Shown: one piece after another, positions 5,187 through 43,274 of the stretch
Layout of the letters: every line of letters begins with the position of its first letter
Position numbering within the stretch: the stretch's first letter is position 1
From: Clostridia bacterium
GTDB taxonomy: Bacteria; Bacillota; Clostridia; TANB77; CAG-508
Assembly (NCBI GenBank): GCA_030539215.1
Contig: JAUNSM010000001.1
Span: 12,669-76,668, forward strand
Direction of reading: 5' to 3'
DNA length: 64,000 bases
Translations under genes and position numbers: made by a program
The notes under the pieces: generated by a model
Seen by the model: the letters and a program-made list of their open reading frames with translations, nothing else
What the model was told of the DNA's origin: nothing
The model's database searches: none

Positions 5187-5245
5187 AAGTATTGAATTTT
5201 ATAAAAAAAAGAGTGTATAATACAAAAAGACAAGGAGGTGTTTTT

Positions 5246-16229: not shown

Positions 16230-16540
16230 ATTCTCACTCCTCCTTTAATTTTTCTTAGTATTATCAAGCCTTTCAGCTTGTTGTATCAATGTTTTCATTG
16301 TTTCTTGAGTTTATTGAAACTTATTGATTTTAAAGGGTTTTTATGGATGCTTATTGATATGATTACGCTCAAATTGTGCTAAAATTGTGTTAAAATATTT
16401 TATGTACACCAAACTCCCCTTTGCTATTTTGTAAAAAAGAATACACTTTTTTACTTTTTTTATTTTAGCATATTTTTACATATTTGTGTAGTATTTTACA
16501 AATATTTTTTGTATTTTACTCATTCTAGTTGTATGATTTT

Positions 16541-16873
16541 TTATAGTTCTTCTTCTTCTGACAATATTTCATTTTTTTCTTTATCATATCCAGGCTCAAA
16601 TTCAAATGGATTTAAGTCATATTTTTTATAATTGTTTACAAATTTGAATAACTGCTCTTTATCCATTTCGCAAATTCTTTTTAACCATATATTAGATAAC
16701 AGTGAGGGTTTACCATCTTTTTTCTTTAATGTTTTCTTCAATAAATTTATGTCATTTAGGAAATCATAATATCCTTTGCATTCTCGTGTTTGATAAACCT
16801 TTTTATTTAATATAGGAAGATAATCTTTATATGCAAGTCCATATGTTACTGCTTTATACTCTTTTTTTTTCAT
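16541..16873 (-). CDS. Hypothetical protein, acidic C-terminal tail (SEEEEL)
   Basis: Last gene of the co-directional array. Probable start is MKKKEYK at 16873, just after the upstream stop codon. Confidence 0.6.
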   Translation of the reverse strand: MKKKEYKAVTYGLAYKDYLPILNKKVYQTRECKGYYDFLNDINLLKKTLKKKDGKPSLLSNIWLKRICEMDKEQLFKFVNNYKKYDLNPFEFEPGYDKEKNEILSEEEEL

Positions 16874-16874
16874 T

Positions 16875-17219
16875 TTATGACTCCATTTCTTGTTCCTCAT
16901 TTTCTTCTATTTCCTCAAATTTTATTTTGCTTAGAAATGTTTCTAACATTACTTCATCAAAAGTTTCTGGTAAACTATATGCAATCAGATTAATATCTAA
17001 AAATTTATTAAATATTTTGTTTAGTATATCTGTATCTTTTTCTAAAATATTTTTAAATAAATTTGTTTCAACAATTTCTTCAAGTAGTGTATTTTTAATA
17101 TTATTAAATATTCTATATTTATAAATTGCATTGTCAAAATCTTCATTAGAACATACTCTTATTTCTTCTCTAACTCTATTTATTTGATTATTCAAGTTGT
17201 TTTCAATCTCATCATTCAT
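16875..17219 (-). CDS. Hypothetical D/E-rich protein
   Basis: Minus-strand ORF tiling with its neighbours. Ends EENEEQEMES. No family recognised. Confidence 0.6.
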   Translation of the reverse strand: MNDEIENNLNNQINRVREEIRVCSNEDFDNAIYKYRIFNNIKNTLLEEIVETNLFKNILEKDTDILNKIFNKFLDINLIAYSLPETFDEVMLETFLSKIKFEEIEENEEQEMES

Positions 17220-17221
17220 TA

Positions 17222-18100
17222 TTATTTTTCCCTTTCCTCAATGTATTCTTCTAAACAAATATCTAATTCTTCATCTATATATGATAATATTTGATACATT
17301 TTTTCATTTTTTACCATTTCATCTGTAGGAAATATAACTATACTTTTATTAGATTGATATGGTACTTCAATTCTCAATCCTCTATTTGTAAATTCAAAGA
17401 TTGCAATATAATCAAGTCCTTTTATTGTTGTTTTATGGTTTGCTATCAGAATTTCAAATATTGGATCATTTTCTCTCACTAATAGTTTTTGTTTTGTAAA
17501 TTCTTTTAAACATTCCTCTATTGTTAAATATGTATAATCTTGTATTATTTTTTCAGAATACTTACATTTTGAAAAAATAATTTTTTCACTTATTGTTTTA
17601 ACATCAAAGTCAAATGTTCCCCCTTCAAGAATATTTGCTTTATCTTCAAGTTCTAATTTTTCTTGCAATTTATATTCAATTATCGAAGCATAAGTTAGGT
17701 CAACACCATTTTTTATATAGTTTTTAGCATATTGTATTGCTTTTTCTTTTTCTAAAAAAGCAATAACATTTTCGTCATAATGTCCATTATATCCTTCTGT
17801 ATTATTACATATCACTCCTACTTCAAGCCTATATACAGTATTGTTATTAGAAATTTTTTCTGCTTCTTCAATTGTACTTTTATAGAAAATATTGTTATTA
17901 ATTTTAATTGTATCTTCACATTGCTTTTTTTGATTTTCTATAATTTCTTGGTACTCATTATCATAAAAATCATTTATTGAAACAGGATACATTCCATCGT
18001 TATGTGTTTCTGGATATTCTTGGACATAGTTATTATAATAGACAAGTAGACTTAACAATTCTTCTTTTGTAAGGTCGCCAAAATTTATATTTTTATTCAT
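17222..18100 (-). CDS. Hypothetical D/E-rich protein
   Basis: 292-aa ORF overlapping the upstream gene by 8 nt. No family recognised. Confidence 0.65.
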   Translation of the reverse strand: MNKNINFGDLTKEELLSLLVYYNNYVQEYPETHNDGMYPVSINDFYDNEYQEIIENQKKQCEDTIKINNNIFYKSTIEEAEKISNNNTVYRLEVGVICNNTEGYNGHYDENVIAFLEKEKAIQYAKNYIKNGVDLTYASIIEYKLQEKLELEDKANILEGGTFDFDVKTISEKIIFSKCKYSEKIIQDYTYLTIEECLKEFTKQKLLVRENDPIFEILIANHKTTIKGLDYIAIFEFTNRGLRIEVPYQSNKSIVIFPTDEMVKNEKMYQILSYIDEELDICLEEYIEEREK

Positions 18101-18449
18101 TTTCTAATGTTCCCTCATTTTCTTTATATATTTCTTCTAATGAGCAGAAATCCATAAGTTCTACAACGCATTCTATTAAATCAGATTCATTTGAATCTTC
18201 AAGTGCTACTAACGATATTTCTTTTGTTGAATATGCTCTTGAAATTTTATGTGCAATAAATGCTAAACTCATATGTTCTGTATCTTCACTTCTCCAAGCT
18301 GAATTAATAACATCATATAATCTTTTCACTTCATCTAATGTTGCATCTTTATTTTCACTATATATTTCTTTTATAATTTCTATATCTGTAAAACGCATTT
18401 TCTGTTCAGGAGTAAGCATTTTAAATAATTCTATACTTCTTTCAATCAT
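18093..18449 (-). CDS. Hypothetical 118-aa protein, paralog of 42085..42441
   Basis: Same length as 42085..42441 and alignable with it (LT.E.K ... AY.T.E.SL.ALE.S ... LEE.Y). Confidence 0.65.
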   Translation of the reverse strand: MIERSIELFKMLTPEQKMRFTDIEIIKEIYSENKDATLDEVKRLYDVINSAWRSEDTEHMSLAFIAHKISRAYSTKEISLVALEDSNESDLIECVVELMDFCSLEEIYKENEGTLENE

Positions 18450-18493
18450 AATTTTTTTCTCCTATTCTTGAATTCTTTATATGGCTGATTAGT

Positions 18494-18724
18494 TTAACAT
18501 ATTTCGTTAATTTCTGATTCTTCATTATTAAAATACGTATTTCTAATATCTACTTCAGGCACATTTGGTAATAAATCACAAAGAAAATTATATTGTTTTA
18601 CTTCATCAAGATTTCCTGCATAATCTAGTATATTATTAATAAATTGTTCTACTAAAATACTGTTAGGAAAATTATAATAATTCTCTATTATGTGTTTCTT
18701 GAAGTTATTTTTACTAATTATCAT
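18494..18724 (-). CDS. Hypothetical small protein
   Basis: 76-aa ORF within the array. Confidence 0.5.
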   Translation of the reverse strand: MIISKNNFKKHIIENYYNFPNSILVEQFINNILDYAGNLDEVKQYNFLCDLLPNVPEVDIRNTYFNNEESEINEIC

Positions 18725-18762
18725 GTTATTTACCTCTTTATATATTGAATTTTATTTAATAT

Positions 18763-19617
18763 TTATAGTTCTTCTTCCTGATTACTTAAATCTATTCCAT
18801 AATCAAAAGCTATATCTTTAATTTTTTCTATTATTTCCATCTTTATATTTTCCCAATGGTCTTTCTTATGCAAATTATTTAATTCTACTACCTCTATTTC
18901 ATCTAACAATTTCTGTTTTAGTTCTGTTGTATAATCCTTATCAATCATTTCTATACCACATACTAACTGCTTTAATATTGTCTTATCAAAACTGTTGACT
19001 TTATCAATGAAGTTTATAAGTGATTCTGTATCGCGTACTTTTATTGATTGTTCTTCATTAATGAATCTGTTTTCAAAATAATCCTCAAAATGAGAATATC
19101 TTTCACAAAAAATTTTTAAATCTTGTTCCAAATTTTTTATTCTTTCTACATTTTCATTTAGACAATATTCAATTTCTAAGTCGATTTTTATTGCTTTATA
19201 ATTTTCATATATTTTCTCTAAACTATATGTTTGAATCAAATAATCTTCAGCAAACTTGCTTAAATATTTATAATCAATATTTTTATTAAATTCTTCAACA
19301 ACATTATCACAAAATTCTGGAAATTCTTCAAAATCCATACTGCCTAGAGATATTGTTGGCAATTCTTCTCTATCATTTTCTAATTTTCCAATATAATATG
19401 AAATTATTGCAACTTGTTCTTTTCTAAATTGCAAATTATTTTCCTCTTGAATTATATTAGTTATTTCATCCTCTAATTCATAATAATCTCTGCCATATAT
19501 TGCTGCTTCTGTTTCTTCTCCATTACGATCTTTGCTTGGAAGTTTTATATTATATTTACTTAGTAATTCTTCAAATGTATTAATTATTTTAATTGCTAGC
19601 TCTTTATTATCATCCAT
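18763..19617 (-). CDS. Hypothetical D/E-rich protein
   Basis: 284 aa. Ends NQEEEL. Confidence 0.65.
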   Translation of the reverse strand: MDDNKELAIKIINTFEELLSKYNIKLPSKDRNGEETEAAIYGRDYYELEDEITNIIQEENNLQFRKEQVAIISYYIGKLENDREELPTISLGSMDFEEFPEFCDNVVEEFNKNIDYKYLSKFAEDYLIQTYSLEKIYENYKAIKIDLEIEYCLNENVERIKNLEQDLKIFCERYSHFEDYFENRFINEEQSIKVRDTESLINFIDKVNSFDKTILKQLVCGIEMIDKDYTTELKQKLLDEIEVVELNNLHKKDHWENIKMEIIEKIKDIAFDYGIDLSNQEEEL

Positions 19618-19630
19618 TTATTAATACCTC

Positions 19631-20125
19631 CTATAATGATTCTTCTTGATAATTTAATTGTTCTTTTGACTGTTTATATAATTCTCTAATTTCTTCTATT
19701 TTTTTCTTGTATTCATCTTCACAAAAGAAAATTAGTTTTTCATTTTGTTTTCTAAATTCATTCCTGTTTTTTATTTTTGCCATTTCATCTATTTTAATTT
19801 GCATAGATGAATCTATTTGGTAATACTCAACAAAAATACTACAATATTTATAATATTTTTCTTGATAATTCTTATTTTTTAAACTTAAGTATAGTATTTT
19901 ATATTCTAGTAAATTTTTAAAGAACGAATTTTTGTCATATTTATTTATTAAAAAAATCAATCCAGCTGCATTTTCAGAGTTTAATTCTATATTATAATAA
20001 GTTAGCATATCTTCTGTTAATACACTAGCATTTTTGTGATTCATTAATAATTCTATATCTTCATCTTTCAAATAGTCTTTATATTGTTCTATGATTCTTT
20101 TTACGAATTTATTTTCTTTACTCAT
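19631..20125 (-). CDS. Hypothetical protein
   Basis: 164 aa. Ends YQEESL. Overlaps the upstream gene by 8 nt. Confidence 0.6.
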   Translation of the reverse strand: MSKENKFVKRIIEQYKDYLKDEDIELLMNHKNASVLTEDMLTYYNIELNSENAAGLIFLINKYDKNSFFKNLLEYKILYLSLKNKNYQEKYYKYCSIFVEYYQIDSSMQIKIDEMAKIKNRNEFRKQNEKLIFFCEDEYKKKIEEIRELYKQSKEQLNYQEESL

Positions 20126-20666
20126 TTTCTAACTCCTCTTCATTATTAATTTTATTTTCAATTAACTCATCAATATGCTTTTCTACTATCTGTCGAGGAT
20201 TTTGCATTTCCCAATCAATATCTTTATGTATGACCAAATAATCTAAAATCTCATTAAAATTGATTTCTTTATTATCGTTTATTTTATAAAGTTCGATGTA
20301 ATATCCTCCTTCATTTTCGTTACAATCGTTTATTACACAATAATATATATTCTTGTAAAAGTTAGACCTGAATTCTGGTATTTCTCTCTTATAGGTTTCG
20401 ATAAAAATTTGATTTATTTTACCTAATGCATCTCTAATATTTTGTGTCATAAAGTTATCTGTGGGTACAAAACTATCAATAGAAATCTCTGGTATACATT
20501 TAATAAATCCTTTTTCTATACTTTCTCTTGTTAGACATAAATCTTCATGTTCATTGATATATCTATAAGCATCTATTAATTTTGTTTTATATTCTTGTAA
20601 TTTTGATAAATCAGTAATTTTCGAATAATCAATTTGTAATATTCTTTTACAAGTATTAAAATCCAT
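20118..20666 (-). CDS. Hypothetical D/E-rich protein
   Basis: 182 aa. Ends EEELENE. Confidence 0.6.
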   Translation of the reverse strand: MDFNTCKRILQIDYSKITDLSKLQEYKTKLIDAYRYINEHEDLCLTRESIEKGFIKCIPEISIDSFVPTDNFMTQNIRDALGKINQIFIETYKREIPEFRSNFYKNIYYCVINDCNENEGGYYIELYKINDNKEINFNEILDYLVIHKDIDWEMQNPRQIVEKHIDELIENKINNEEELENE

Positions 20667-20667
20667 G

Positions 20668-21000
20668 TTATAATTCTTCCTCCTCTTCTATAGTATTATT
20701 AATTCTTTCTAAATGTTTAAAATGTTCTAAATAAAGCTCATCAAGACTTTTTAATGAATTATTGATTGTTTCCTCATAATAAATTATTGTTTCTTTTATA
20801 TTCTTTATTGTTTCTGGATCATCTTTATATATTTTTAGATTTTTTTTATTCAATTCTATTAATTTCAAATTTTTAAATATATAATTTACTTGACTTACAA
20901 CATCGGCCATATACATATATTCTTTAGCTTCATATTCGAATGATAATTTCGGAATATTAGTGTATTTTTCTAATTTACTCAATAAATTAATGTCTTTCAT
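20668..21000 (-). CDS. Hypothetical protein
   Basis: 110 aa. Ends EEEEEL. Confidence 0.6.
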   Translation of the reverse strand: MKDINLLSKLEKYTNIPKLSFEYEAKEYMYMADVVSQVNYIFKNLKLIELNKKNLKIYKDDPETIKNIKETIIYYEETINNSLKSLDELYLEHFKHLERINNTIEEEEEL

Positions 21001-21002
21001 AA

Positions 21003-21179
21003 TTAAAGGCTCTCTTCTAGTTCATTCTTTAATTCAATACCTAATATTTTCATTTCTTTTTTAGATAATCCAATAATGTTTATAAAAGTATTGTACTCAT
21101 CTTCTTCTGTTATGCAATGTTCACTAACATATTCTAATAACTTATCAATAATTTCATTTTTTCTATTACTATCTATCAT
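21003..21179 (-). CDS. Hypothetical 58-aa protein (below the ORF-track cutoff)
   Basis: My own translation: MIDSNRKNEIIDKLLEYVSEHCITEEDEYNTFINIIGLSKKEMKILGIELKNELEESL. Its ATG overlaps the upstream TGA (ATGA) and its stop lies 2 nt before the next ATG. Confidence 0.5.
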   Translation of the reverse strand: MIDSNRKNEIIDKLLEYVSEHCITEEDEYNTFINIIGLSKKEMKILGIELKNELEESL

Positions 21180-22147
21180 TGTAAATTTTCCTCCCCTTCT
21201 AAGCTTTCTAAGGAATCCTCTGGTATTTCAAATTCATATATTAAATAATAAACTCCTTTTGAATAGTTCTTATCAAAAAAATGCCATATGTCTTCTTTAG
21301 TAGTTTCTCCAGGAGTAAAGTAAAGAAATGTATCACCAAGTTTTTCTTCTCCCTGTTCATCGATATCAAAAGGTATATCTTCTAACTGTTTCCAGTAGAT
21401 TTCAAGCAATTCATCTTTATATGGCTGTGTAAATTCATAAGCTAGCCCATTGCAATTTCTAGTTTGAATAATTCCTTTATTTATTAATAAATTTAATTCA
21501 TCAGCAGTATATTTTTTTATTATGTCTGCATTGGCTGGTATCATCCCTTCATAAATCAAATTGTCCTTAATAAAAGATTCTGTAAATATTTTAATTAATT
21601 CTTTTTCTTTTTTTAAAGTAGAGTCATAATCTTTTTCTGATTGAGCTTCCTTAATATTCATTGACGTCATATTGTTTAATTTTTCACTTACAATTTCATA
21701 TATTTTGCTATTTATAGAATCATAATCTCCCATAAGGTACTTATCGTTGCATATTCCATCTGTTATTGAATCAACAATACTGACTGTAATTTCCCCTTGT
21801 TCCAGTTTTTCGACAAAGTAATCAGATATATAAGCCAATATGTCAGATTTTATGTTATTAAAGAAAGTGAAAGATAAAGAACCAATATAGTTATCAATAT
21901 TTTTTGGAGTCAATATTTCAATATCTTGTATAGATTTATCTTTTATTAAAACTTGATTTACCCCTGGAGCATTTATTAATTGAGTAGTTTTAGTATCTTC
22001 TACTTCAAATAACACATCTCCACTTTTTAATGCGTTTTTAGCCCACTCTCTTGCTTCTTCAAATGTTTTCGCATCTACTCCAATTACTCTTTTATTTATT
22101 TCAATTATTTCTATATCATATATTTCGTTATTTCCTTCATTGTTCAT
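21176..22147 (-). CDS. Hypothetical protein with a DpnD/PcfM-like N-terminal domain
   Basis: The N-terminus (YDIEIIEINKRVIGVDAKTFEEAREWAKNALKSGDVLFEVED) resembles the small DpnD/PcfM domain of Gram-positive conjugative plasmids. Assigned from memory of the family. Confidence 0.55.
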   Translation of the reverse strand: MNNEGNNEIYDIEIIEINKRVIGVDAKTFEEAREWAKNALKSGDVLFEVEDTKTTQLINAPGVNQVLIKDKSIQDIEILTPKNIDNYIGSLSFTFFNNIKSDILAYISDYFVEKLEQGEITVSIVDSITDGICNDKYLMGDYDSINSKIYEIVSEKLNNMTSMNIKEAQSEKDYDSTLKKEKELIKIFTESFIKDNLIYEGMIPANADIIKKYTADELNLLINKGIIQTRNCNGLAYEFTQPYKDELLEIYWKQLEDIPFDIDEQGEEKLGDTFLYFTPGETTKEDIWHFFDKNYSKGVYYLIYEFEIPEDSLESLEGEENLQ

Positions 22148-22369
22148 TTTCTTTCACTTCGCTTTCTTCTACTTTTTCATTGTTTAAAAATTTTTGTATG
22201 TTATTTTCATATTCAAACATTCTTCCCATTCTTCAAATGTACGAATTTCTTTTAGATTATTTACTTTATATATTCTCGGTTCACTTTCCCAGCATAATTC
22301 ACTTTCAATATTAGTATCACGATACAATACTTCATATTTTTTTCCTGATTATTAATAATTAACATCTAA

Positions 22370-23284
22370 TCACTCCTGAAATTCTTCTTCACTAATATCC
22401 ATTTCGTGTGTATCTTCTATTTCTTGACTTATGTATGATAATAAACTCTCTATTGAATTTTTATAACCTGATGAAAGTAAAATACTTTCGACTTTTTCTA
22501 TTAATGTTTCATCTATTTTTGAGGTTTTATTTTCTTCTAATAATTCTAAAATATCAAAAGGTGAAAGGCATTTAATATTTAAATTATTAAGTGTATCACT
22601 TATTTTCATTATTATTTCATTTAATTCATTTTCAATTTCTGATTTCTCACAAGCATCAAAATAGAAATATTCATCATTTTCTTCAATATAGTTTTCAAAA
22701 TGATCTAGTATTATTTTTTTTTTCATTTCTTCTGACAACAAATCTACTATATCATCTTTATTAAATTCTTCTTCGCACATGAATTCAAAGGCTTCTTGTG
22801 CATTACTAAAATTTTCTATTCCGTAATTTTTTAATGTTTCTTTCCCTAATTTAGAGAATAAAGTATGTTCTTTCATTTTAGTTCGATTGTTAAATTCTTT
22901 ACTTGCTTCGTATAGATTATCAAAATATGAGCCAGAAACCCATTCAAAATGAGTTTTTGTTTTACTTACTTGAATATTATTTGCTATAACATATGGACAT
23001 TGGGAACAATTTATTTTTTTTAGTAAAGTCATATTCTTATCGCCTTCTAATAAAATTGCATTTCCATATTTGAGATAAAAAAACGCGTCTTTTTTTATTT
23101 CATCAATGGTTACAACATCCTTAAATTCACGGATTTCTGCTCCTTTAAAATTTTCATCAGTTAATTCAATTTCGTTGTTATCATATTTTTCCTGTGCTTT
23201 TTCCAAAGCTTCTTCCATACTGTTTGCATAAATTTTTATAACATCTTGATAAATTTCTTCAATTTCGACTGGATAATGTTTCAT
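22370..23284 (-). CDS. Hypothetical protein with a DpnD/PcfM-like N-terminal domain
   Basis: MKHYPVEIEEIYQDVIKIYANSMEEALEKAQEKYDNNEIELTDENFKGAEIREF fits the DpnD/PcfM pattern. The remainder is unknown. Confidence 0.6.
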   Translation of the reverse strand: MKHYPVEIEEIYQDVIKIYANSMEEALEKAQEKYDNNEIELTDENFKGAEIREFKDVVTIDEIKKDAFFYLKYGNAILLEGDKNMTLLKKINCSQCPYVIANNIQVSKTKTHFEWVSGSYFDNLYEASKEFNNRTKMKEHTLFSKLGKETLKNYGIENFSNAQEAFEFMCEEEFNKDDIVDLLSEEMKKKIILDHFENYIEENDEYFYFDACEKSEIENELNEIIMKISDTLNNLNIKCLSPFDILELLEENKTSKIDETLIEKVESILLSSGYKNSIESLLSYISQEIEDTHEMDISEEEFQE

Positions 23285-23556
23285 ATTTCTTGTTCCTCCT
23301 CTTCCTGTTTATCAGCTTCCTTATAAATATCTTTTATTTCTTGTAAATCATCTGTTGTAATAATACTTACTTCCTCAGGAGTTAATCCATATCCTCTTAA
23401 TGTCAGTACAGCTTCTGTATAATTAGATATTTCAAATAAAGAATCTAATAACATATCGTATATTTCTAATTTTCTAACAATTGGCAAATCCTTATTTTCT
23501 TTTTTAGAATTTTCAACTTCAACTTTATTTTCAATAATATTTTTTTTATTTTCCAT
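23281..23556 (-). CDS. Hypothetical small acidic protein
   Basis: 91 aa. ATGA overlap with the downstream gene. Ends EEEEQEI. Confidence 0.55.
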   Translation of the reverse strand: MENKKNIIENKVEVENSKKENKDLPIVRKLEIYDMLLDSLFEISNYTEAVLTLRGYGLTPEEVSIITTDDLQEIKDIYKEADKQEEEEQEI

Positions 23557-23904
23557 TTAATTCAATTCCTCATTTCCCTCTATTTCTTCTTCCTCCATGT
23601 TTTTTTCATTTTCTATAGCTTTCACATATATTTCTGGGTATTTTTGTATAAACTTATAGAATTCTCTTGATCCAGAAATATTTTGAATCCCATTTTTTTC
23701 TATTAATTCTTCATATTTACTTAATTTTATTTTTGTAGGGTGAAATGGTAAAAATCCTAACCTTTTTTCGTATATTATTGTTGCAGTATCAATATTGAAA
23801 TTCATATATTCTGAATAAACATCTCTTAATCCTTCTTTGACAATTCGAACAGGAATTATTTGATATATTCCTTTTACTAATTCGATTGGATTATTATTTC
23901 TCAT
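23557..23904 (-). CDS. Hypothetical protein
   Basis: 115 aa. Abuts both neighbours with no gap. Confidence 0.6.
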   Translation of the reverse strand: MRNNNPIELVKGIYQIIPVRIVKEGLRDVYSEYMNFNIDTATIIYEKRLGFLPFHPTKIKLSKYEELIEKNGIQNISGSREFYKFIQKYPEIYVKAIENEKNMEEEEIEGNEELN

Positions 23905-24615
23905 CTAATGTTCCTCCTGATTTTCTTCTGAAATTTCTTTTAGAAAATCTGTTATAGTTTGTCCTAAATATTTTTCTGTTTCTTTAACAAATATTTTAGT
24001 TTCTTTTGGATTTAATATATATTTTTTATTTATTCTTGTATCATCATCTTTTATTTGTACAATTGTCATGGTTGTTTCTTTTGTTTTTATATGATAGCTT
24101 ACATATATATCATAGTAGAATGGCGTATCTATATTTTCATCAAATTCTAATTTATTTGTATTTACACAATTTGAAGACAGATAAGCTTCAATGGTATTGG
24201 TTTCTTCATCATAAAGTATTTCTTCATTATCAAAATCAATATCATTTTCTAAAAAAATGGATTCTTCAATGCATGGTCTTAAAAGTTTTCTTAGATATTC
24301 GGCCATTTCTCCTTGATTTTTGAATGCTTTTCTTTCATGAGACTCACTATATTCCCTCGTGTTACAATCTAAATCTAATCTTGCTGTTTCGATTCCTAAC
24401 TTTCCAAAATCATGAGTGATCCAAATTCTTTTATTTAAAATTTCACTTTCAACAACTATCCATAAAGGTCTATGTAAATCAATATAATCAGGATTTTTTT
24501 TATGCCAATTAGAAAAATCTGATACTTCTTCTAAATCTGCTGTAAATAGTAATCTATATATTTCCTTATATTTTTTATGGTAAAAGGTACTTTGCAAATT
24601 TATAGTTCTTCTCAT
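23905..24615 (-). CDS. Hypothetical protein
   Basis: 236 aa. Overlaps the upstream gene by 4 nt. Confidence 0.6.
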   Translation of the reverse strand: MRRTINLQSTFYHKKYKEIYRLLFTADLEEVSDFSNWHKKNPDYIDLHRPLWIVVESEILNKRIWITHDFGKLGIETARLDLDCNTREYSESHERKAFKNQGEMAEYLRKLLRPCIEESIFLENDIDFDNEEILYDEETNTIEAYLSSNCVNTNKLEFDENIDTPFYYDIYVSYHIKTKETTMTIVQIKDDDTRINKKYILNPKETKIFVKETEKYLGQTITDFLKEISEENQEEH

Positions 24616-25817: not shown

Positions 25818-25830
25818 ATATGTTACCTCT

Positions 25831-26490
25831 TTATAAATTCATAGTATTTATATTGTCTTTTTCATATTCTTTTGCTATTTCTATTAATTTGTTTTCAATT
25901 TCTCCATAATGTGCATTAATAAAATTTTTATCATCTTCACCAAAGCATTCTATTGAAACTATCTGCATTGGTAGTCCGTTAATTTCATCTTTTATTCTAA
26001 ATAAGCCACCTAATTCATATGGACCCTTTGATAAAGTAAAATTAATATAATTATTGCTTTCTAATGAAACATTGTTAATTTTTATATTGTACCAATTATC
26101 TTTATATGCATCATATATACCAGCTATTTCTTGCCAATCTTCTGGATCAATAAGTGATGACAATTTTAATGAGCAATTGAAATTGATTAATAATATCTTA
26201 TTTAAATCTCCAACCATTTTAATTATCTTTTCTGAGGTTAAGTCTTTTCTTGTCTGGCAAAACCATAAGTTTAATTGGTCTGTGTTCCCAATTATTACTA
26301 AATCATTTTTAGCCAAATCAAACTTAATCCAATCATGATAGTGTTTATCTGTATCTTTCGCTTGGATAGATATATTTTCTTCTGAGTATTTTCGAAATTT
26401 AAATGAATAATCTTTACAAAACTCTTTGAGATTATTGATTATTTCTTTTTCTCTTTTTCTTTTTTCAAAATTTTCTCTCATTTTTTTCAC
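25831..26490 (-). CDS. Hypothetical protein
   Basis: 219 aa. No family recognised. Confidence 0.6.
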   Translation of the reverse strand: MKKMRENFEKRKREKEIINNLKEFCKDYSFKFRKYSEENISIQAKDTDKHYHDWIKFDLAKNDLVIIGNTDQLNLWFCQTRKDLTSEKIIKMVGDLNKILLINFNCSLKLSSLIDPEDWQEIAGIYDAYKDNWYNIKINNVSLESNNYINFTLSKGPYELGGLFRIKDEINGLPMQIVSIECFGEDDKNFINAHYGEIENKLIEIAKEYEKDNINTMNL

Positions 26491-26511
26491 CTATATTTTT
26501 AATATTCTAAT

Positions 26512-27105
26512 CTATCGTTCTACTAGTTCTGCATCTTTTTCATTATTTATAAAATATTCATTTGAAAAATCACATAGATACTCAAATAAATATTGGTCTC
26601 CATTTATTAAACTACTTGTATATTGCCAATCTACAGCTTCGAAAATATCTTCAACCATTTCTTCAATGCACTTTTCTGGTAATTTGTCAAAGTCAATATT
26701 AAATTGGTTTAGATATTGACATACTTCTTCATAAATTCCATCATAACTTATTCCTGCTTCACTTATTATTTTGTCATCATATTCTGATACATAACATTTA
26801 CCTTTTCTCTTATAAAAGTTTTCATAATTTTTATAAATATATCCTTGCCTAAAATACTCCTTTTCTATTGTTCCATCATTGTTTACTTTTCCAATTTCAG
26901 AACACATAACATTTTCTATATATTTTTTCGTTTCTTCAATATTGCTGTTTTTATTAACATATAATGTTTTAACTCTTATATAATCATTGTTTTTTTTAAT
27001 ATAAATATCTATTTGATTAAAATTCTTTTCTACTTCTTCTGACATAACATAATGTTGCATTTCTTTATTTATAAATTCGCAGTAAAAATCTCTTACTTTA
27101 AACAT
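26512..27105 (-). CDS. Hypothetical protein
   Basis: Probable start is MFKVRDF at 27105, overlapping the upstream stop codon. The track ORF extends to 27147. Confidence 0.55.
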   Translation of the reverse strand: MFKVRDFYCEFINKEMQHYVMSEEVEKNFNQIDIYIKKNNDYIRVKTLYVNKNSNIEETKKYIENVMCSEIGKVNNDGTIEKEYFRQGYIYKNYENFYKRKGKCYVSEYDDKIISEAGISYDGIYEEVCQYLNQFNIDFDKLPEKCIEEMVEDIFEAVDWQYTSSLINGDQYLFEYLCDFSNEYFINNEKDAELVER

Positions 27106-28018
27106 TTTCCTCTTCATATTCTTCTTCCTTTTCTTGATTTGCTTCATAATTTATATAGTATGTATCTTCAAATAATGCTTTCATTTCTATATTACTCAAT
27201 TTTAAGAAATCCCAAGTTTGAATTTCTTTAACTGCATTTCCATAGCCATCTGTAATGTTTATTCTGCATTTTCCATTATCAATATTTTTTACTGTTATTT
27301 CTAATAAATTGTCATTATTTATTAATGCAGGAGATTCTGAATATAGAATATGTCCTGATTTAAAGTACCCATTACATTCATACTCCTCAAATTCTAAATA
27401 GTATTTATCCAAATTGTAAAAATCAAAAATATCATTTTTTATTTTTTCATATTCGTCACAGCATTCATCTATTCCCTCTGATATATATTTATTATTTAAT
27501 TCTATAAATTTATTTAATTTTTCATTATCTTTATACCCATTGTCTAATAAATATACTATTGCAGAACATTCACCTATCGTTCTATCTATTCTTACATATT
27601 CTCTTAAATCTCTTTCATCAATTAAGACATTTTGTTTTAACAAATCTAACAGCTTCGTTGGTTCTATATTTTGTAAATGCTCTTGTAGCTTAATCGGTTT
27701 TCCATTTTGTATAAAGTATATTTCATCTAATTTTACTAAACCCATTGGTACATCTATTTTTTCCATTGGTATAATTTCTTGCCTAATTTTATTGTTTAAA
27801 AATGATTTGTATTGTTTTTGTGCTAACTCATTTCCTATTTTAAAATCATCTAATGTTTCAATATTTTTAAATGCTATTTCAAGGATATTATTAAAATTTA
27901 ACTTGCAACTATCTATTGATTTAAATAATTTAAATTCGTTTTTATCTCCATTAAACTCTGGTGTACAATATAGCTGTTTAGTTTCTTTGTCATAAAACAA
28001 CACTTTTCTCCTAGTCAT
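27098..28018 (-). CDS. Hypothetical protein
   Basis: Probable start is MTRRKVLFY at 28018, overlapping the upstream stop codon. Ends EEEYEEENV. Confidence 0.6.
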   Translation of the reverse strand: MTRRKVLFYDKETKQLYCTPEFNGDKNEFKLFKSIDSCKLNFNNILEIAFKNIETLDDFKIGNELAQKQYKSFLNNKIRQEIIPMEKIDVPMGLVKLDEIYFIQNGKPIKLQEHLQNIEPTKLLDLLKQNVLIDERDLREYVRIDRTIGECSAIVYLLDNGYKDNEKLNKFIELNNKYISEGIDECCDEYEKIKNDIFDFYNLDKYYLEFEEYECNGYFKSGHILYSESPALINNDNLLEITVKNIDNGKCRINITDGYGNAVKEIQTWDFLKLSNIEMKALFEDTYYINYEANQEKEEEYEEENV

Positions 28019-28604
28019 ATTCCTCTTCTTCCTCCTCATCTTCTTCAATTTTACTATTTAAATGCTTTTCAAAGTTATTTTCTAATTCACTTAAATTATA
28101 TTTTTCCCAAACATAACTTATAATGTCCTCATACATATTATTTGAATAAGTGTTTACTTCCCCAATAATGTTCTCGTATTCTTCTCTCCAGTCTAAAAGG
28201 ATTTTGACTATTTTATCATTAGTAATTTCATATAGTTTTTCTAATGCTTTTTGATCGTTTTCTCTCATAAATAATTTAATTACTTCTAATAACTGTGTTT
28301 GTATGTTTTTTTCTCCTTCTGTGTGTTTATCTATTAATAAATTTAGTTCCATATTGTTTAAATCTAAAACTAATAAATCAAATACTTCATAATGTTTTAT
28401 TAGTTTATCCCCAAAATACAATTCTCCTGACAGAGAGTAGCCTTTGGGCTGTTCCTCTATATGATATTTCACACTTATTTGTTCCTTTGTATTGTAATAA
28501 TTATTAAATTCCTTTATTATTTCTGGTATTTCATTTTTTAATTCTTCTTCAATACTCGGAATATCATCCTTACTAAATGTTAATGGTTTATTCTTATAAA
28601 TCAT
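28011..28604 (-). CDS. Hypothetical D/E-rich protein
   Basis: 197 aa. Ends EEDEEEEEEYD. Confidence 0.6.
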   Translation of the reverse strand: MIYKNKPLTFSKDDIPSIEEELKNEIPEIIKEFNNYYNTKEQISVKYHIEEQPKGYSLSGELYFGDKLIKHYEVFDLLVLDLNNMELNLLIDKHTEGEKNIQTQLLEVIKLFMRENDQKALEKLYEITNDKIVKILLDWREEYENIIGEVNTYSNNMYEDIISYVWEKYNLSELENNFEKHLNSKIEEDEEEEEEYD

Positions 28605-28615
28605 TATTATATCTC

Positions 28616-29671
28616 CTATCTTTCGACTTCTAATTGCAGATTATTTTGAACATATTTTATTGTTTCCTCGATGTCTTCGTTAATAAGACTTGGTGATTCA
28701 TTCGTATAATTTAAAATATCTTCTTTCCAACAACTTTTTATCAAACCATATACTTCATCAACACTATAGCCATTATTTTTTGCACCTTCAATTTGAAATT
28801 CTCTTATAAATTCTTTAGGTATAATTAAATCTTTATCCAAGATAATTTCTAACAAACCTCCACAGCCACTCCACTCATTAAAGATTCCTATCATTACTGT
28901 TTTATCAAATTTTAAATATTTATTGTTTTCTATATTATCTTTATATTCTAAAAAATTTAGAGCTTCCATTCCATTCATTTTTACAAGTAACGTAATTTCA
29001 CTCATTGAATCAGATGAATTATTTGCAATATCTTCTACAACTGTTTTAATAAAACTGTTTTTTACATCTTTACTTTGTTCATTGAAATTGTTTAATATAT
29101 CAAAATATTCTTTCACATAATGTCCTTGTTGATGTATTATATAGGTTAAGGCATTATCAAAATCATCGGATATTAAGTTTTCATAATATGGTTCATGGTA
29201 TGTTCCATAAGATCTAATAATATTACTCATATCTGAATTTCTTTCTTCACTAGTTGCAAACATAATATTAATATAAAAATTAGATCTGTTTAAAAGTTCT
29301 TCAATATAACAGTCTATTCCTTGATAACCATTTTCTATTAGATCTTCACGTAAATCACATGTTTCTTCATACCACTCTTTGAATTTTTCAGTAAAAAATT
29401 TTTCTTTTTGAATCTCTGTTTCTATATTTTTATACAAGTATGAATCATAATCTAAATTATAATTAATCAACTCATTTTCTAAATAATCTTTTATGCAATC
29501 GAATCCTTCTTTCTTATAATTCTTATATGCATTCAACAAAGTTTGTGGGTCTAAACTATCTCTATAATCCCAATAGATTTCTAAATAACCATTATCATTA
29601 CAATATTCATTTATCTTTTCTTTTAAAAAAGTGTCATATAACTCTTTATAATTATTCATACCCAAAATCAT
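28616..29671 (-). CDS. Hypothetical protein
   Basis: 351 aa. The start is either 29671 or 29659. Confidence 0.6.
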   Translation of the reverse strand: MILGMNNYKELYDTFLKEKINEYCNDNGYLEIYWDYRDSLDPQTLLNAYKNYKKEGFDCIKDYLENELINYNLDYDSYLYKNIETEIQKEKFFTEKFKEWYEETCDLREDLIENGYQGIDCYIEELLNRSNFYINIMFATSEERNSDMSNIIRSYGTYHEPYYENLISDDFDNALTYIIHQQGHYVKEYFDILNNFNEQSKDVKNSFIKTVVEDIANNSSDSMSEITLLVKMNGMEALNFLEYKDNIENNKYLKFDKTVMIGIFNEWSGCGGLLEIILDKDLIIPKEFIREFQIEGAKNNGYSVDEVYGLIKSCWKEDILNYTNESPSLINEDIEETIKYVQNNLQLEVER

Positions 29672-29690
29672 CCCTTACATTTTTGAACAG

Positions 29691-30179
29691 CTAAGGTTCA
29701 TTTTCTTCAGCTTCATTTTCATTTAATAATATATCTTCAACTTTTTCATCATAGTTTTTACTAAAGCATCTTTCCAAAGCTATTTTTAATCCATTTTTCA
29801 AATTTTTATTTCTATTTACTTCTTCAGGTGTTATTGATAAAGCATCCAATACTGCATCTATTTCATGTGTATACCCATACTCGTGATTTATAAGCTCTTC
29901 TATAAACATGTCTTTTATGAAACCTGTTCCATCTTTATCATGATTTATTTCATTTTGTATTTCTTCTTTATGCTTTTGACATAATTGTATGTAATCTTTT
30001 AAATCCGATTTTTTGACAAATCCTCCAAAGCCTATTGATGTAATTTCTTTTGTATCTTCTGGATTAAGTCCTAATTTTTTCATACCTTCATTAAATTGTT
30101 CATCAGAAAAGGCAAACATTAATGGGAATTTATCAACTTCCTCAATATGTCTTTGTTTAAGGTTTCTATATTTATTCAT
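29691..30179 (-). CDS. Hypothetical protein (conserved-looking FAFSDEQFNEGMKKLGL N-terminus)
   Basis: 162 aa. The motif looks like a recurrent conjugative-element DUF, but I cannot name it. Confidence 0.6.
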   Translation of the reverse strand: MNKYRNLKQRHIEEVDKFPLMFAFSDEQFNEGMKKLGLNPEDTKEITSIGFGGFVKKSDLKDYIQLCQKHKEEIQNEINHDKDGTGFIKDMFIEELINHEYGYTHEIDAVLDALSITPEEVNRNKNLKNGLKIALERCFSKNYDEKVEDILLNENEAEENEP

Positions 30180-30639
30180 ATTCCTTTTCCTCTTTTCTGT
30201 TACATTGTTCTATTATTTCGTTTAATCTATTATTCATAAGATCTTTAAGTTGTTCTTTTGTGATTTTGTCAAGTTCTTCTTCGAATACTTCGTAATAAAT
30301 ACATTCGTAGTTTCCTATATCGTCAATTTCATAAGCATTAATTTCAAACCAATTATTAGAACTTATTTCTACATCTTCTTGTTTGTACAGATTAGCACTT
30401 TTAATTAAATCAATTAACTCTTTAGGATAATTATTTGCATTTTCATATAGCTGATCTTTATAAAAAATTCTTTTTTCACCAGTAACTATAATTTCAATAG
30501 CATAATTACCTTTAATTAGTTCTGCTATCATATGGTCTTCGAATAATAGGCTATCTGAGTAGTTTTCTAAATTATCAACAACAGAGAATTCTTCTAATTC
30601 TATTTTATCCATTTCTCCTACTTTCTTAGATTGCAACAA
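30172..30639 (-). CDS. Hypothetical acidic protein
   Basis: 155 aa. Overlaps both neighbours. Confidence 0.6.
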   Translation of the reverse strand: MLQSKKVGEMDKIELEEFSVVDNLENYSDSLLFEDHMIAELIKGNYAIEIIVTGEKRIFYKDQLYENANNYPKELIDLIKSANLYKQEDVEISSNNWFEINAYEIDDIGNYECIYYEVFEEELDKITKEQLKDLMNNRLNEIIEQCNRKEEKEYE

Positions 30640-31394
30640 TCCCTTTTATTAAAATTAACATTATTTTTCCAATAGTTATAATGCTCAGTTACATCTTCGC
30701 AAATTGATATTTCTTTGTTCTTTTTGATATTTGATAACATTTTTATTTTTTCTTTCAATGGTAAATGCATATAATTACTTTGTTTAACTGTATATTTTGT
30801 ATAATCTATATCGAGCCATTTTTTTATAAAAGGATTAACTCTTAAAAATTCAATTAGTATTTTATCGCATTTAATCTTATTTATTATTTTATAATCAATC
30901 CATTCTTCAATAAAAGGAGATAATCTAACTTGTACATCAAATCCAAGATTTTGTAGTTTTTCAACAGCCTTAATCCTTTGCTCTGGTAATGATGCTTTTT
31001 CATATTTTTTTGATATTTCATCTGAAGTAGATGTAATACTAATTTGTATATGTGCTAGTTTTGGATCTAATATTTTTATATATTCATCTGCTGCAATTAA
31101 ACTTGATTTAGTAACAATTAAGTAGCCAAGCTTATATTTATTTAATAATTGAATAGTTTTGTAGGTATTTTTATACTTTAATTCACATGGTTGCATACAA
31201 TCCGTCATACCACCTAATCTTAATATTGTTCCTGGTTCTATTTTTTGTAATTTTCTTTCAATTACTTTTATATTAGCAACTTTTGGTTTTTCAAAATTCC
31301 ATAATTTCCTAAAATTTAATAAAGATTTTGCATAACAATATGAACAATTATGACTACAGCCGCAACCATACGTATCTAGTCTTTTATTGTACAA
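30618..31394 (-). CDS. Radical SAM protein, spore-photoproduct-lyase/DNA-photolyase-like (COG1533-like)
   Basis: CSHNCSYC (CxxxCxxC) cluster near the N-terminus. TTG start. Overall resemblance to SplB-type radical SAM enzymes. First gene behind promoter motif copy A. Confidence 0.65.
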   Translation of the reverse strand: MYNKRLDTYGCGCSHNCSYCYAKSLLNFRKLWNFEKPKVANIKVIERKLQKIEPGTILRLGGMTDCMQPCELKYKNTYKTIQLLNKYKLGYLIVTKSSLIAADEYIKILDPKLAHIQISITSTSDEISKKYEKASLPEQRIKAVEKLQNLGFDVQVRLSPFIEEWIDYKIINKIKCDKILIEFLRVNPFIKKWLDIDYTKYTVKQSNYMHLPLKEKIKMLSNIKKNKEISICEDVTEHYNYWKNNVNFNKRDCCNLRK

Positions 31395-31478
31395 ACACTT
31401 ATTCCCTTCATTGCCTCCAACTTCTTTATAAAAACTTTTAAATTCTTCGCTTCAGCATTTTCCTTTCTATTATTATTT

Positions 31479-31550
31479 TGGTTGCGAAGATAGGTACTGC
31501 CCCTATATCACCTGGCAAAGCAAACAGGCATGTTCTTTACACTACTTCGC
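31479..31550 (-). ncRNA. tRNA-like cloverleaf in the leader of the radical SAM operon (non-canonical)
   Basis: Hand-folded on the minus strand. Stems: 6-bp acceptor (GCGAAG/CUUCGC), 4-bp D stem, 5-bp anticodon-like stem, and a 5-bp T stem (AUAGG/CCUAU) stacked on the acceptor. Loops: 10 nt on the anticodon-like stem, 7 nt on the T stem. The 3' tail is AACCA. It lacks the conserved D-loop and T-loop sequences. Confidence 0.3.
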
Positions 31551-31597
31551 GATAAAAAAGAAAGGTATACAAATCTTTTATAATTTGTATAACCTTT
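31551..31597 (-). terminator. Leader hairpin plus U-tract downstream of promoter copy A
   Basis: aaaggttatacaaat / atttgtataccttt stem with one bulge, followed by cttttttat on the minus strand. Confidence 0.6.
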
Positions 31598-31606
31598 CAT
31601 GATAAT

Positions 31607-31661
31607 ATTATATATAGTGAAATAGTATATATCAATTCCGTTTTTTTTCCGTTTTTTCTAT
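31607..31661 (-). promoter_or_regulatory. Element promoter motif copy A (29-nt motif + TTGATA-17-TATAAT)
   Basis: Minus strand: atagaaaaaacggaaaaaaaacggaaTTGATA, a 17-nt spacer, then TATAAT. The motif is identical to copy D. Confidence 0.7.
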
Positions 31662-31663
31662 GA

Positions 31664-32680
31664 TTATTGTTCTTCTTCTAAATCTTCATCAAAAAATAAT
31701 TCGCAATACTCTTTGTAAATTTCTTTATTTATATATAAATTTTTAAATTTTTCATCTAGTAGCTTATATTGTTTGTCTACATCATAATCAAATTTATATT
31801 TTTCTTTTGATATTTCTAAAAAAGCTTTTGCTTTATTATATTCCTCAATATCTTGTCCAGTTATTTGAACAAATGTATTATTTCTTTTTAAAAAGTCCTT
31901 GTCTTTGGACATTTTAACTAAATCTTCATGACATTCTACTATTTTTTTATTTTTTATAATTTCTCCTAACCTTACGATTTCATCAATTAATTTGTCATTT
32001 GGATAATCTTCTTTTAAAGAAACATATGCAGAATATTTACCACTTCCATCTGCTGCAAATTCATATTCTTGTAAAAAATATAATAAATCATTATTTCTAA
32101 TATTACTTTTCTGTTCTGATATAACATTTAAATATAACTTATATGATTGTTCTTTTGATTCATATAATTCTTTTTTAAAGTTTACGACTTCATATTCTTT
32201 TAATCCACTAATCTTCGTTATCTCTCTTTTGCTATATTTTTTAGCCTCATTTATATTAAAAGTATATCTATATGTTTTCATACCTATGTTTTTTAAATAT
32301 GCCATTGAATCTTTAAATTTAATAATATACTCTTTTTTTTCTTTTAAAATATTATTAATAATATCTTTATATTTATTATATACTGTGACATCATCACTAT
32401 TGCAAAGTTCATTATAATAGTTCTCTAATTCAATCATTTCATTGCCAAATTCTATTTTTCTCAGCTTGTGATTTCCCCATATATGAACTCCTCCCGTTAT
32501 TACATTTCCTACTAAACGAGCATATTTTTCTTCCCATGTGTTTAAATATGGATATATATCATATTTATTTTCAAAAATATAATTCCCCTCATTATCTGTG
32601 AAAGAACTATTTGCAATTTTAGCACTTATTCTGTTATTTGGTTTATCTAATTTTAAATCTTTTACTATGTCATAACTCAT
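31664..32680 (-). CDS. Hypothetical protein
   Basis: 338 aa. Ends DLEEEQ. Confidence 0.6.
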   Translation of the reverse strand: MSYDIVKDLKLDKPNNRISAKIANSSFTDNEGNYIFENKYDIYPYLNTWEEKYARLVGNVITGGVHIWGNHKLRKIEFGNEMIELENYYNELCNSDDVTVYNKYKDIINNILKEKKEYIIKFKDSMAYLKNIGMKTYRYTFNINEAKKYSKREITKISGLKEYEVVNFKKELYESKEQSYKLYLNVISEQKSNIRNNDLLYFLQEYEFAADGSGKYSAYVSLKEDYPNDKLIDEIVRLGEIIKNKKIVECHEDLVKMSKDKDFLKRNNTFVQITGQDIEEYNKAKAFLEISKEKYKFDYDVDKQYKLLDEKFKNLYINKEIYKEYCELFFDEDLEEEQ

Positions 32681-32694
32681 TTAATCACCCTCTA

Positions 32695-33108
32695 CTATAA
32701 TTCTTGATTTTCTTCATATTCTTGATATTGTATATCTAATTCTTTTGATAATAACTCTATCATTTCTCGGTTTTCATTATAAAAACATTTTGATTTTTCA
32801 ATCATAATTTTCTTTAACTCGTTCTTTGTTTTAATTTTTTCAATATCAATTTTTTCATATAGTACATTTTCAAAATCAACGTCATAATTTTTGCTACTAT
32901 GTATACTATATGTTAAACCAAACTCATTATCATATACCCCTAAATATGCACTAATACTTAGCATTTTATTTTCTACAACTGCTAAATCATAAGCTTTGTT
33001 ATAATCTAATTCATATATTTTCTTTTCTTTTAACTCTTTAAAAGTATGTCCGTTTTCAAAATTAAATTTATAATATTTGTTTGATTCATTTATTATATTA
33101 TTTCTCAT
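32695..33108 (-). CDS. Hypothetical protein
   Basis: 137 aa. Ends YEENQEL. Confidence 0.6.
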   Translation of the reverse strand: MRNNIINESNKYYKFNFENGHTFKELKEKKIYELDYNKAYDLAVVENKMLSISAYLGVYDNEFGLTYSIHSSKNYDVDFENVLYEKIDIEKIKTKNELKKIMIEKSKCFYNENREMIELLSKELDIQYQEYEENQEL

Positions 33109-43262: not shown

Positions 43263-43274
43263 AAATTTCTCCTT

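Follow-up and report, generated by a model that had tools for sequence, protein, structure and literature searches.

The question raised by this locus is what a conjugative element does with two dozen closely packed genes whose acidic products are almost all unrecognisable. The window, which is the whole stretch of 64,000 nucleotides analysed here from a Clostridia bacterium (contig JAUNSM010000001.1 of assembly GCA_030539215.1), has a G+C content of 25%. Its chromosomal part extends from position 1 to about 16.3 kb and carries rho, guaA, a guaB fragment, two tyrosine recombinases, a HIGH-nucleotidyltransferase gene and yebC. Beyond about 16.4 kb all genes up to the window's end are on the minus strand and were assigned to an integrated conjugative element (ICE), marked by a MobL relaxase, a Gram-positive-type type IV secretion system (T4SS), a sortase, a SpaA adhesin and ArdC. 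The array of small genes at 16541-31394 is the terminal operon of this ICE, integrated beside yebC in a low-GC Clostridia genome. By analogy with other mobile elements we propose, at a rough probability of 0.45, that the array may be a module for establishment or host takeover that amounts to a polyvalent protein unbundled into separate genes.

The operon and its promoter box

Twenty-six open reading frames (ORFs) on one strand occupy 16541-33108, and the first-pass annotation, made from the sequence alone, had read them as about 26 coupled genes. All 26 are present, but the operon proper holds only 24 (31394 down to 16541, minus strand, ~15 kb), because promoter copy A directly precedes the radical SAM gene; the ORF pair at 31664-33108 is upstream of that promoter and is therefore the end of the ArdC/adhesin operon. 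The overlapping or abutting spacing described earlier is largely as stated, with 4- or 8-nt overlaps or short gaps at most junctions, but the gaps (from 0 nt) reach 44 nt, and a few overlaps of 20-50 nt depend on the choice of start codon. The sole sizeable gap of the operon measures 222 nt (22148-22369) and contains short ORFs, of 34 and 27 codons, that differ in frame; it may be what is left of a small gene, or a regulatory region inside the operon. The earlier statement that no terminator or promoter intervenes was upheld, since no terminator-like hairpin was found on the coding strand within the operon and promoter-like hexamers inside it are no commoner than in shuffled sequence. The layout shows a single promoter box that is predicted to drive the radical SAM gene and 23 translationally coupled genes.

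This promoter is located as follows:

31607-31661, minus strand: promoter copy A, with the invariant 29-nt box ATAGAAAAAACGGAAAAAAAACGGAATTG at 31633-31661, whose last bases begin the -35 hexamer TTGATA

A spacer of 17 nt separates TTGATA from the -10 hexamer TATAAT in copy A. The consensus of the box over its copies is ATAGAAAAAAsGGAAAwAAAmsGGAATTG, running into the -35 hexamer, and it is built of two 11-bp direct repeats (AAAAAAsGGAA) that adjoin the -35. Six copies occur in the window, where the chance expectation is 0:

31633-31661, minus strand: box copy
40631-40659, minus strand: box copy
45160-45188, minus strand: box copy
51235-51263, minus strand: box copy
51377-51405, minus strand: box copy
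56279-56307, minus strand: box copy

The box precedes the array and the operons of ArdC, VirB4 (T4SS), the sortase and the sigma factor. The same box is found ahead of the radical SAM gene in L009/L010 (labels of this form denote loci and contigs outside the window), and six other gut metagenome contigs contain the exact box. In L017 (box at 426-454), L018 (4367-4395) and L019 (2274-2302) it lies upstream of a large serine recombinase gene, and in L014, L015, L017 and L019 a conserved ORF of ~61 aa follows it. The box appears to be a regulatory element common to a mobile-element family of low-GC Clostridia. Candidate regulators encoded by the ICE are a sigma-70-like factor (49539-50054) and an AP2-domain protein (45226-45768).

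An acidic and mosaic protein repertoire

The 24 genes of the array are, in operon order:

30618-31394, minus: radical SAM protein, first gene, 258 aa, basic (isoelectric point (pI) 9.4), CxxxCxxC; the best-conserved array gene, 69-78% identical across relatives
30172-30639, minus: 155-aa acidic protein (pI 4.3), matching an internal part of a 345-aa L008 protein
29691-30179, minus: DUF7659 protein, 162 aa, also in L004-L006, L008, L009 and on Bacillota plasmids
28616-29671, minus: 351-aa acidic protein, phrog_23767 (unknown function); full-length homologue in L005, 54% identity
28011-28604, minus: 197-aa two-module protein with tail EEDEEEEEEYD; N- and C-terminal halves match different proteins in L008 and L005/L009
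27098-28048, minus: 316-aa (or 306-aa) protein, of which L005 shares the N-terminal 88 aa only
26512-27147, minus: 211-aa conserved family, 44-57% identity in L005, L008 and L009; no PDB sequence match
25831-26490, minus: 219-aa protein with a homologue in L008 only
24612-25817, minus: 401-aa protein of a rare unnamed family, with a disordered acidic tail
23905-24615, minus: 236-aa protein whose N-terminal 120 aa are a separate 131-aa protein in L005
23557-23904, minus: 115-aa single-domain protein; the C-terminal or middle domain of 271-363-aa proteins in L005, L006, L008 and L009
23281-23556, minus: 91-aa protein, in L005 fused C-terminally to a DpnD/PcfM domain
22370-23284, minus: 304-aa protein with N-terminal DpnD/PcfM domain, full-length in L008, L009 and ~45 metagenomic proteins
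21176-22147, minus: 323-aa mosaic protein with weak DpnD/PcfM-like N-terminus; modules in L006, L008 and L009, C-terminus matching phrog_4173
21003-21179, minus: 58-aa protein, a module internal to 121-230-aa proteins in L005 and L009
20668-21000, minus: 110-aa conserved protein, 59-67% identity in L005, L008 and L009
20118-20666, minus: 182-aa two-module protein
19631-20125, minus: 164-aa protein without homologue in related loci
18763-19617, minus: 284-aa acidic mosaic protein (pI 4.4)
18494-18724, minus: 76-aa ORF without homologue in related loci
18093-18449, minus: 118-aa protein, the only array protein with a paralogue elsewhere in the ICE (42085-42441, 34% identity)
17222-18100, minus: 292-aa protein whose N-terminal 50 aa match a 62-aa L008 protein
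16875-17219, minus: 114-aa acidic protein with full-length homologue in L009
16541-16900, minus: last gene, 119 aa, basic body and tail SEEEEL; its homologue is the last array gene beside yebC in L009

The richness in Asp and Glu (D+E) noticed at first reading was borne out and is specific to the array. The median pI of the 24 array proteins is 4.64, with a mean net charge of -0.071 per residue and 20% D+E, as compared with 8.88, +0.020 and 12% for 15 chromosomal ORFs and 5.49, -0.014 and 15% for 32 other ORFs of the ICE (Mann-Whitney p ~1e-4 against each set). Net charge is negative and pI is 4.3-5.4 in 21 of the 24, and individual proteins contain 16-26% D+E and 7-23% Lys plus Arg (K+R). No hydrophobic segments were found in the array proteins, indicating that they are soluble and cytoplasmic.

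Nearly all array proteins end in a Glu-rich tail, e.g. EEDEEEEEEYD, ELEEEEVV, KQEEEEQEI or SEEEEL. The last 15 residues contain 39% D/E in the array versus 16-20% elsewhere (p ~1e-4), and 36-44% versus 13% in related arrays. The tails are disordered in both structure models described below and conserved in homologues, and that of the last gene is also found in its L005 and L009 homologues. They frequently overlap the following gene's ribosome-binding site (GGAGG), but the explanation that they are a by-product of GGAGG was rejected: the tails are 8-12 residues long and are present also on the gene before the 222-nt gap and on the last gene, which has no downstream cistron. Similar acidic, Glu-tailed proteins are encoded elsewhere in the ICE, at 31664-33108, 42085-44024 and 59292-60071.

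Almost none of the products had been recognised at first reading, and searches of Pfam, NCBIfam, PHROGs and PADLOC agreed. Radical_SAM, DUF7659 and DpnD/PcfM were the only Pfam families found in the array, to which three PHROGs of unknown function were added, and PADLOC returned nothing meaningful for array proteins. The leader had been called an SPL-like (spore photoproduct lyase-like) radical SAM enzyme. Radical SAM membership is clear from the Pfam score (54 bits) and a CSHNCSYC motif in the N-terminal sequence, but the SPL part is only loosely borne out, in that the best NCBIfam matches (PA0069, 85 bits against a cut-off of 360; mobile-pair B; Rv2578c) are all far below their cut-offs and no PDB sequence matched at E<=1, the PDB sequences presumably including the solved spore photoproduct lyase. 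Because of these sub-threshold scores and the lack of a PDB sequence match, the enzyme is best described from its sequence as a putative divergent SplB/PA0069/Rv2578c-like protein, and not demonstrably SPL.

As for the two DpnD/PcfM-like N-terminal domains claimed initially, 22370-23284 exceeds the threshold of PF14207 (35.5 bits against 25), but 21176-22147 remains below it (19.1 bits), and profile-profile alignment (hhalign) linked the two N-termini with a probability of 32%. Residues 1-48 of the 22370-23284 protein, its DpnD/PcfM domain, gave weak matches to families annotated as RNA polymerase inhibitor (PF16857, E 0.0024; phrog_1307, E 3.8e-4), a lead that was dropped when neither a PDB profile search nor Foldseek of the whole multi-domain model backed it. 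The DpnD protein had no tblastn match among plasmids, and DUF7659 matched anonymous plasmid genes only, including one among small genes on a Paraclostridium plasmid.

The 401-aa family is represented by 36 homologues in a word search and by 47 representative clusters among 1.84 billion. AlphaFold models were made for two of the 24 array proteins, this one (predicted local distance difference test (pLDDT) 89, predicted template-modelling score 0.83) and, from 40 homologues, the 304-aa DpnD/PcfM protein (pLDDT 81). Each is alpha/beta in fold and multi-domain, and ends in a disordered acidic tail. Profile searches of five array families against PDB sequences, three of them beyond the modelled two, gave no significant match. 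The idea of a paralogous, diversifying multigene family was rejected by BLAST and all-against-all hhalign: BLAST found a single paralogue pair, composed of one array gene and one gene outside the array, and hhalign added only the two DpnD N-domains and one match of 43 columns. The products derive from more than 20 unrelated families.

Relatives of the array were taken as loci encoding the 401-aa family in Clostridia metagenome-assembled genomes from rabbit, chicken and human gut and in Logan and ENA assemblies; annotated plasmid and phage collections gave zero nucleotide matches to the window. In L005, L008 and L009/L010 the layout is a SpaA adhesin, a ~870-aa protein, one or two small genes, the radical SAM gene and 20-27 small genes on the same strand, and the related arrays have the acidity and Glu tails seen in the window. 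The first-pass annotation had proposed comparing related elements for the presence and absence of these genes, and this comparison showed variable, mosaic content. Between 45 and 49% of the residues of the window array can be aligned to any single relative (L005, L008, L009), at a median identity of 45-54%, gene order is scrambled, and three array ORFs are without counterpart in any related locus. The ORFs 23281-23556, 21003-21179 and 32695-33108 occur solo or differently fused in relatives, and the N-termini of 18763-19617, 23905-24615 and 17222-18100 occur there in other fusions or as solo genes. Related ICEs thus share a stock of small domains, which have been reshuffled, joined, separated, gained and lost; what stays constant in at least four independent elements is the operon architecture, the leader gene, the acidity and the tails. 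The relatives also hold LPD11 (L008), LPD28 (weak match, L011), DUF3846, DUF1281_C and DUF7007 (weak match); no LPD domain was detected in the array of the window itself.

The L009 array ends beside yebC, which is the insertion site of the window ICE. A shared insertion site upstream of yebC is suggested by the termination there (15503-16540 in the window, 18096-19141 in L009) of both the window ICE and the independent L009 element, each with the array as its final operon. No integrase was found at the yebC-side end of the ICE within the window.

A proposed establishment module and its rivals

In an establishment or host-takeover module, the array products would be expected to bind host proteins, whether defence or DNA-processing factors, and to neutralise them when the element enters a cell or is activated. 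Their expression would come as a burst, joined by that of ArdC, of the transfer genes and probably of the integrase, when a factor acting on the shared box permits. The radical SAM enzyme would probably act on a constant substrate, e.g. element DNA or a nucleotide, and the fast-evolving acidic proteins may track variable host targets. An anti-defence or establishment repertoire was also the first suggestion made for this locus, together with the observation that ArdC is encoded in the neighbouring operon. The latter was confirmed by Pfam; the former is favoured by context, i.e. the box shared with the ArdC operon, the fast turnover, the LPD domains in relatives and the MobL-type ICE, but no homologue of a characterised anti-defence protein was detected among the array proteins.

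The MobL relaxase class was founded on the relaxase of pLS20, a Bacillus plasmid. In the closest precedent, the pLS20 family (EGeRS1/EGeRS2; p576 Reg; PMC8708921, PMC6294495), as in the present ICE, a MobL relaxase is accompanied by a repeated regulatory sequence common to the ardC operon and other operons, and by 14-20 or more genes that vary greatly from one relative to the next and have mostly unknown functions. The 14-20 variable genes of those plasmids were assigned to establishment regulons for the regulatory sequences that they have in common with ardC, and such regulons are expressed rapidly and transiently in the recipient under a repressor that the element encodes (PMC8708921). The two systems differ in that the repeat here takes the form of a 29-nt box joined to a sigma-70-type promoter and is present also ahead of the VirB4, sortase and sigma-factor operons and, elsewhere, of serine recombinases, and in that the genes form one 15-kb operon in place of several short ones, in a Clostridia ICE instead of a Bacillus plasmid. 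A Reg-like repressor was not identified here, and ArdC is the sole gene family in common.

Leading-region anti-defence islands of conjugative elements (PMC11541004) are likewise dense one-orientation clusters of small genes beside an anti-restriction gene, and include many uncharacterised families. Umu-like translesion-polymerase operons are frequent neighbours of such islands (PMC11541004), and the present ICE also has a Y-family polymerase operon. Unlike those islands, the array is without a known anti-CRISPR, Ard, methyltransferase, SSB or PsiB gene, and it lies 31-47 kb downstream of the relaxase, whereas the islands lie within roughly the first 30 ORFs entering the recipient, on the leading side close to oriT (PMC11541004). 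Island genes are oriented for transcription off the transferred strand, with single-stranded-DNA (Frpo-like) promoters (PMC11541004). A promoter of that kind was not seen here, although no search for one was made; the array promoter is of the ordinary double-stranded -35/-10 type.

A further counterpart is provided by the polyvalent proteins of phages and conjugative elements, in which the LPD families were defined and in which 2-15 conflict-related domains from a pool of small domains are combined in varied ways on one polypeptide, with a proposed role in early invasion (PMC5512222). Solo LPD domains beside T4SS genes have also been proposed as facilitators of early invasion (PMC5512222). The ArdC-N plus MPTase protein next door and LPD11 and (weakly) LPD28 in related arrays connect the locus with these proteins (PMC5512222). 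Unlike them, the array distributes its domains over ~24 translationally coupled genes for proteins of 58-401 aa with one to three modules each, and most of these domains are in no published catalogue. What sets the locus apart is that one long operon, headed by a radical SAM gene, combines unbundled and shuffled domains with a common Glu-rich tail and with families that are nearly all unknown.

Several observations weigh against an establishment role. No array protein matches a characterised anti-defence family in Pfam, NCBIfam, PHROGs or PADLOC, and these searches found no recognised anti-defence gene (Acr, Ard, methyltransferase, SSB, PsiB) inside 16541-31394. Foldseek of both models against the PDB gave no significant match (best E 0.04 and 0.18), nor did a BFVD search with the 401-aa model (best E 0.24), and the query-normalised template-modelling score was <=0.17 for all Foldseek matches. 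The box is ICE-wide and not establishment-specific, as it also serves the VirB4, sortase and sigma-factor operons and serine recombinases elsewhere, and therefore would signal that the element is active rather than that it is being established. The array starts ~31 kb downstream of the relaxase gene (62592-63905), and an F-like layout would put it off the leading side unless the ICE end beyond the window is short; the available ICE sequence stops ~2 kb beyond the window, with the origin of transfer (oriT) and the far ICE end outside it. Finally, frameshifts interrupt VirB4, the coupling protein and the adhesin but not the array.

These frameshifts comprise at least three frame changes in VirB4 (54335-56267), at least two in the coupling protein (60512-62554) and a split that detaches the N-terminal 123 aa of the SpaA adhesin (39040-39080), confirmed by the L006 and L011 homologues. 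Chromosomal genes are disrupted too: guaA has a 1-nt insertion inside its conserved PGPGLA motif (7860-7875), and guaB is split into ORFs 8279-8788 and 8970-9797. Homologues revealed no frame changes in the 15-kb array. An alternative genetic code was rejected as the cause of the split genes, these showing frame changes and no in-frame TGA codons, and the disrupted genes are either pseudogenes or local assembly errors.

Should the array be an establishment module, it would represent more than 20 protein families without known relatives, two of two tested being without a structural neighbour in the PDB, and a source of candidate inhibitors of defence or DNA-processing systems in gut Clostridia, a group in which, to our knowledge, anti-defence genes have hardly been described. 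The pattern of a conserved enzyme at the head of the operon and, behind it, shuffled small acidic domains that carry a common tail would be a search signature for other Gram-positive elements, and the tail itself leads to a testable hypothesis on recognition, by an export machinery, a chaperone or a shared target.

A common Glu tail on unrelated proteins suggests a shared recognition signal, and one may speculate that the donor synthesises the array proteins and passes them through the T4SS into the recipient ahead of or with the DNA, the disordered tail being the export or recruitment signal. This reading, which we consider unlikely, overlaps with the establishment module in purpose and differs from it in mechanism. 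We know of no DotM-like receptor in Gram-positive conjugation systems. The enrichment of D/E in the tails of this and related arrays, also on the last gene of the operon, the disorder of the tails in both models and the box shared with the VirB4 operon all fit export, as do reports that conjugative T4SSs can move many element-encoded proteins (pED208, PMC11288057), that Legionella DotM recruits effectors by Glu-rich C-terminal signals (PMC5802825) and that polyvalent proteins may travel with the DNA (PMC5512222). However, T4SS effectors are listed with C-terminal signals of positive charge or hydrophobic character (PMC11288057), no DotM homologue was seen, although none was searched for, the coupling protein is frameshifted in this copy, and acidic tails could as well serve solubility, autoinhibition or the binding of basic DNA-binding proteins. 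The E-block effectors of the Legionella Dot/Icm system (PMC5802825) are, like the array proteins, unrelated proteins with a disordered Glu-rich C-terminus beside a T4SS, but Dot/Icm is a type IVB system of a Gram-negative pathogen and the resemblance is a lead only. By this analogy the tail, which recurs on ~20 mutually unrelated proteins of the array and on their homologues in at least four related elements, would let a Gram-positive T4SS inject a reshuffled effector repertoire into the recipient, which is decidedly doubtful; such a repertoire could be a bacterium-to-bacterium counterpart of the E-block effectors, made of unbundled polyvalent proteins.

It is likewise improbable that the array has no common function, the ICE end being a permissive site for heterogeneous, fast-evolving hitch-hikers whose acidity and tails reflect shared ancestry in mobile-element gene pools or constraints on expression. 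The number of unrelated families (more than 20), the several ORFs without homologue in related loci, the very small family sizes and the occurrence of DUF7659 among anonymous small genes on a Paraclostridium plasmid too are what one would anticipate of such passengers. Against this, architecture, leader gene, acidity and tails are kept in at least four independent elements, the array is free of frameshifts in a genome with pseudogenes, and the tight translational coupling argues for coordinated expression.

A function for the resident cell or element, i.e. poly-immunity, acquired interbacterial defence, exclusion or anti-phage activity, is quite improbable. Nuclease-toxin immunity proteins are typically small and acidic and form long same-strand arrays on gut mobile elements, as in the acquired interbacterial-defence clusters of Bacteroidales and in poly-immunity loci, and in this respect the array resembles them. 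It is also intact over 15 kb beside a frameshifted VirB4, coupling protein and adhesin. If those frameshifts are real, the array has been kept in a transfer-dead copy, which would mean either that it works for the resident cell or that inactivation was very recent; should they be assembly errors, as they may be, this argument falls away. Known clusters are marked by immunity families (Imm, SUKH and others), or by a toxin gene or dedicated recombinase next to them; here no Imm/SUKH (Pfam) or PADLOC family was matched in the array and no toxin gene was found between positions 14 and 41 kb of the window. Proteins of up to 401 aa with several domains, a radical SAM leader and a box common to the ICE transfer genes also speak against immunity genes.

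That DNA mimics of the ArdA/Ocr type make up most of the array proteins, as the first-pass annotation had considered, is very improbable and found no support: ArdA and Ocr are acidic cytoplasmic mobile-element proteins, elongated and with carboxylates in phosphate-like rows, and 21 of the 24 array proteins share a negative net charge at pI 4.3-5.4, but no ArdA, KlcA or Ocr match was obtained with Pfam and none with NCBIfam or PHROG, both modelled proteins (2 of 24) are multi-domain alpha/beta without significant match to a PDB that holds solved ArdA and Ocr, and classic mimics are more strongly charged than the array proteins at their 16-26% D+E and 7-23% K+R.

Neighbouring genes and minor observations

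The remaining annotated genes of the ICE, from the relaxase towards the array, are:

62592-63905, minus: MobL-type relaxase (domain search)
60512-61854, minus: coupling-protein fragments (domain search)
58386-59228, minus: TrbL_4
57251-57877, minus: T4SS pilin-like protein
54335-55285, minus: VirB4-like fragment
49539-50054, minus: sigma-70-like factor
46858-48421, minus: YolD-like protein and Y-family (ImpB/MucB) polymerase
45226-45768, minus: AP2-domain protein
41559-42098, minus: sortase
39498-40445, minus: ArdC (ArdC-N plus zincin-like metallopeptidase), first gene behind box copy B (40631-40659)
35792-39046, minus: SpaA-repeat adhesin
31664-33108, minus: two acidic Glu-tailed genes of array type (338 and 137 aa), upstream of promoter A

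ParB_N and RHH genes are found upstream of the relaxase on a Logan contig (run SRR24915786) that reaches 2 kb past the window. A hexapeptide-repeat transferase is encoded with the AP2-domain protein in the ICE stretch 45226-46495 (minus strand).

On the chromosomal side, a pair of tyrosine recombinases (32% mutual identity) and a truncated DUF4143 ATPase gene flank guaA/guaB (3516-6226, 9898-10779), and these genes around the guaA locus may be the remnant of another mobile element.

The adhesin has the C-terminus KKLPRTGM (35792-35830, minus strand) where more distant relatives have LPKTGF (homologues compared: L005, L006, L009, L011). Its stop codon follows one residue past the LPXTG motif, without the usual hydrophobic segment and charged tail, and the gene 13 nt downstream opens with a charged and then a hydrophobic segment.

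A cyclic di-GMP-I (c-di-GMP-I) riboswitch is present at 50881-50970 on the minus strand (Rfam RF01051, 72.9 bits, E 2e-12). It is positioned just downstream of box copies D/E and upstream of the operon of a membrane protein (50204-50860) and the sigma-70-like factor (49539-50054), which suggests that c-di-GMP gates activation of the ICE.

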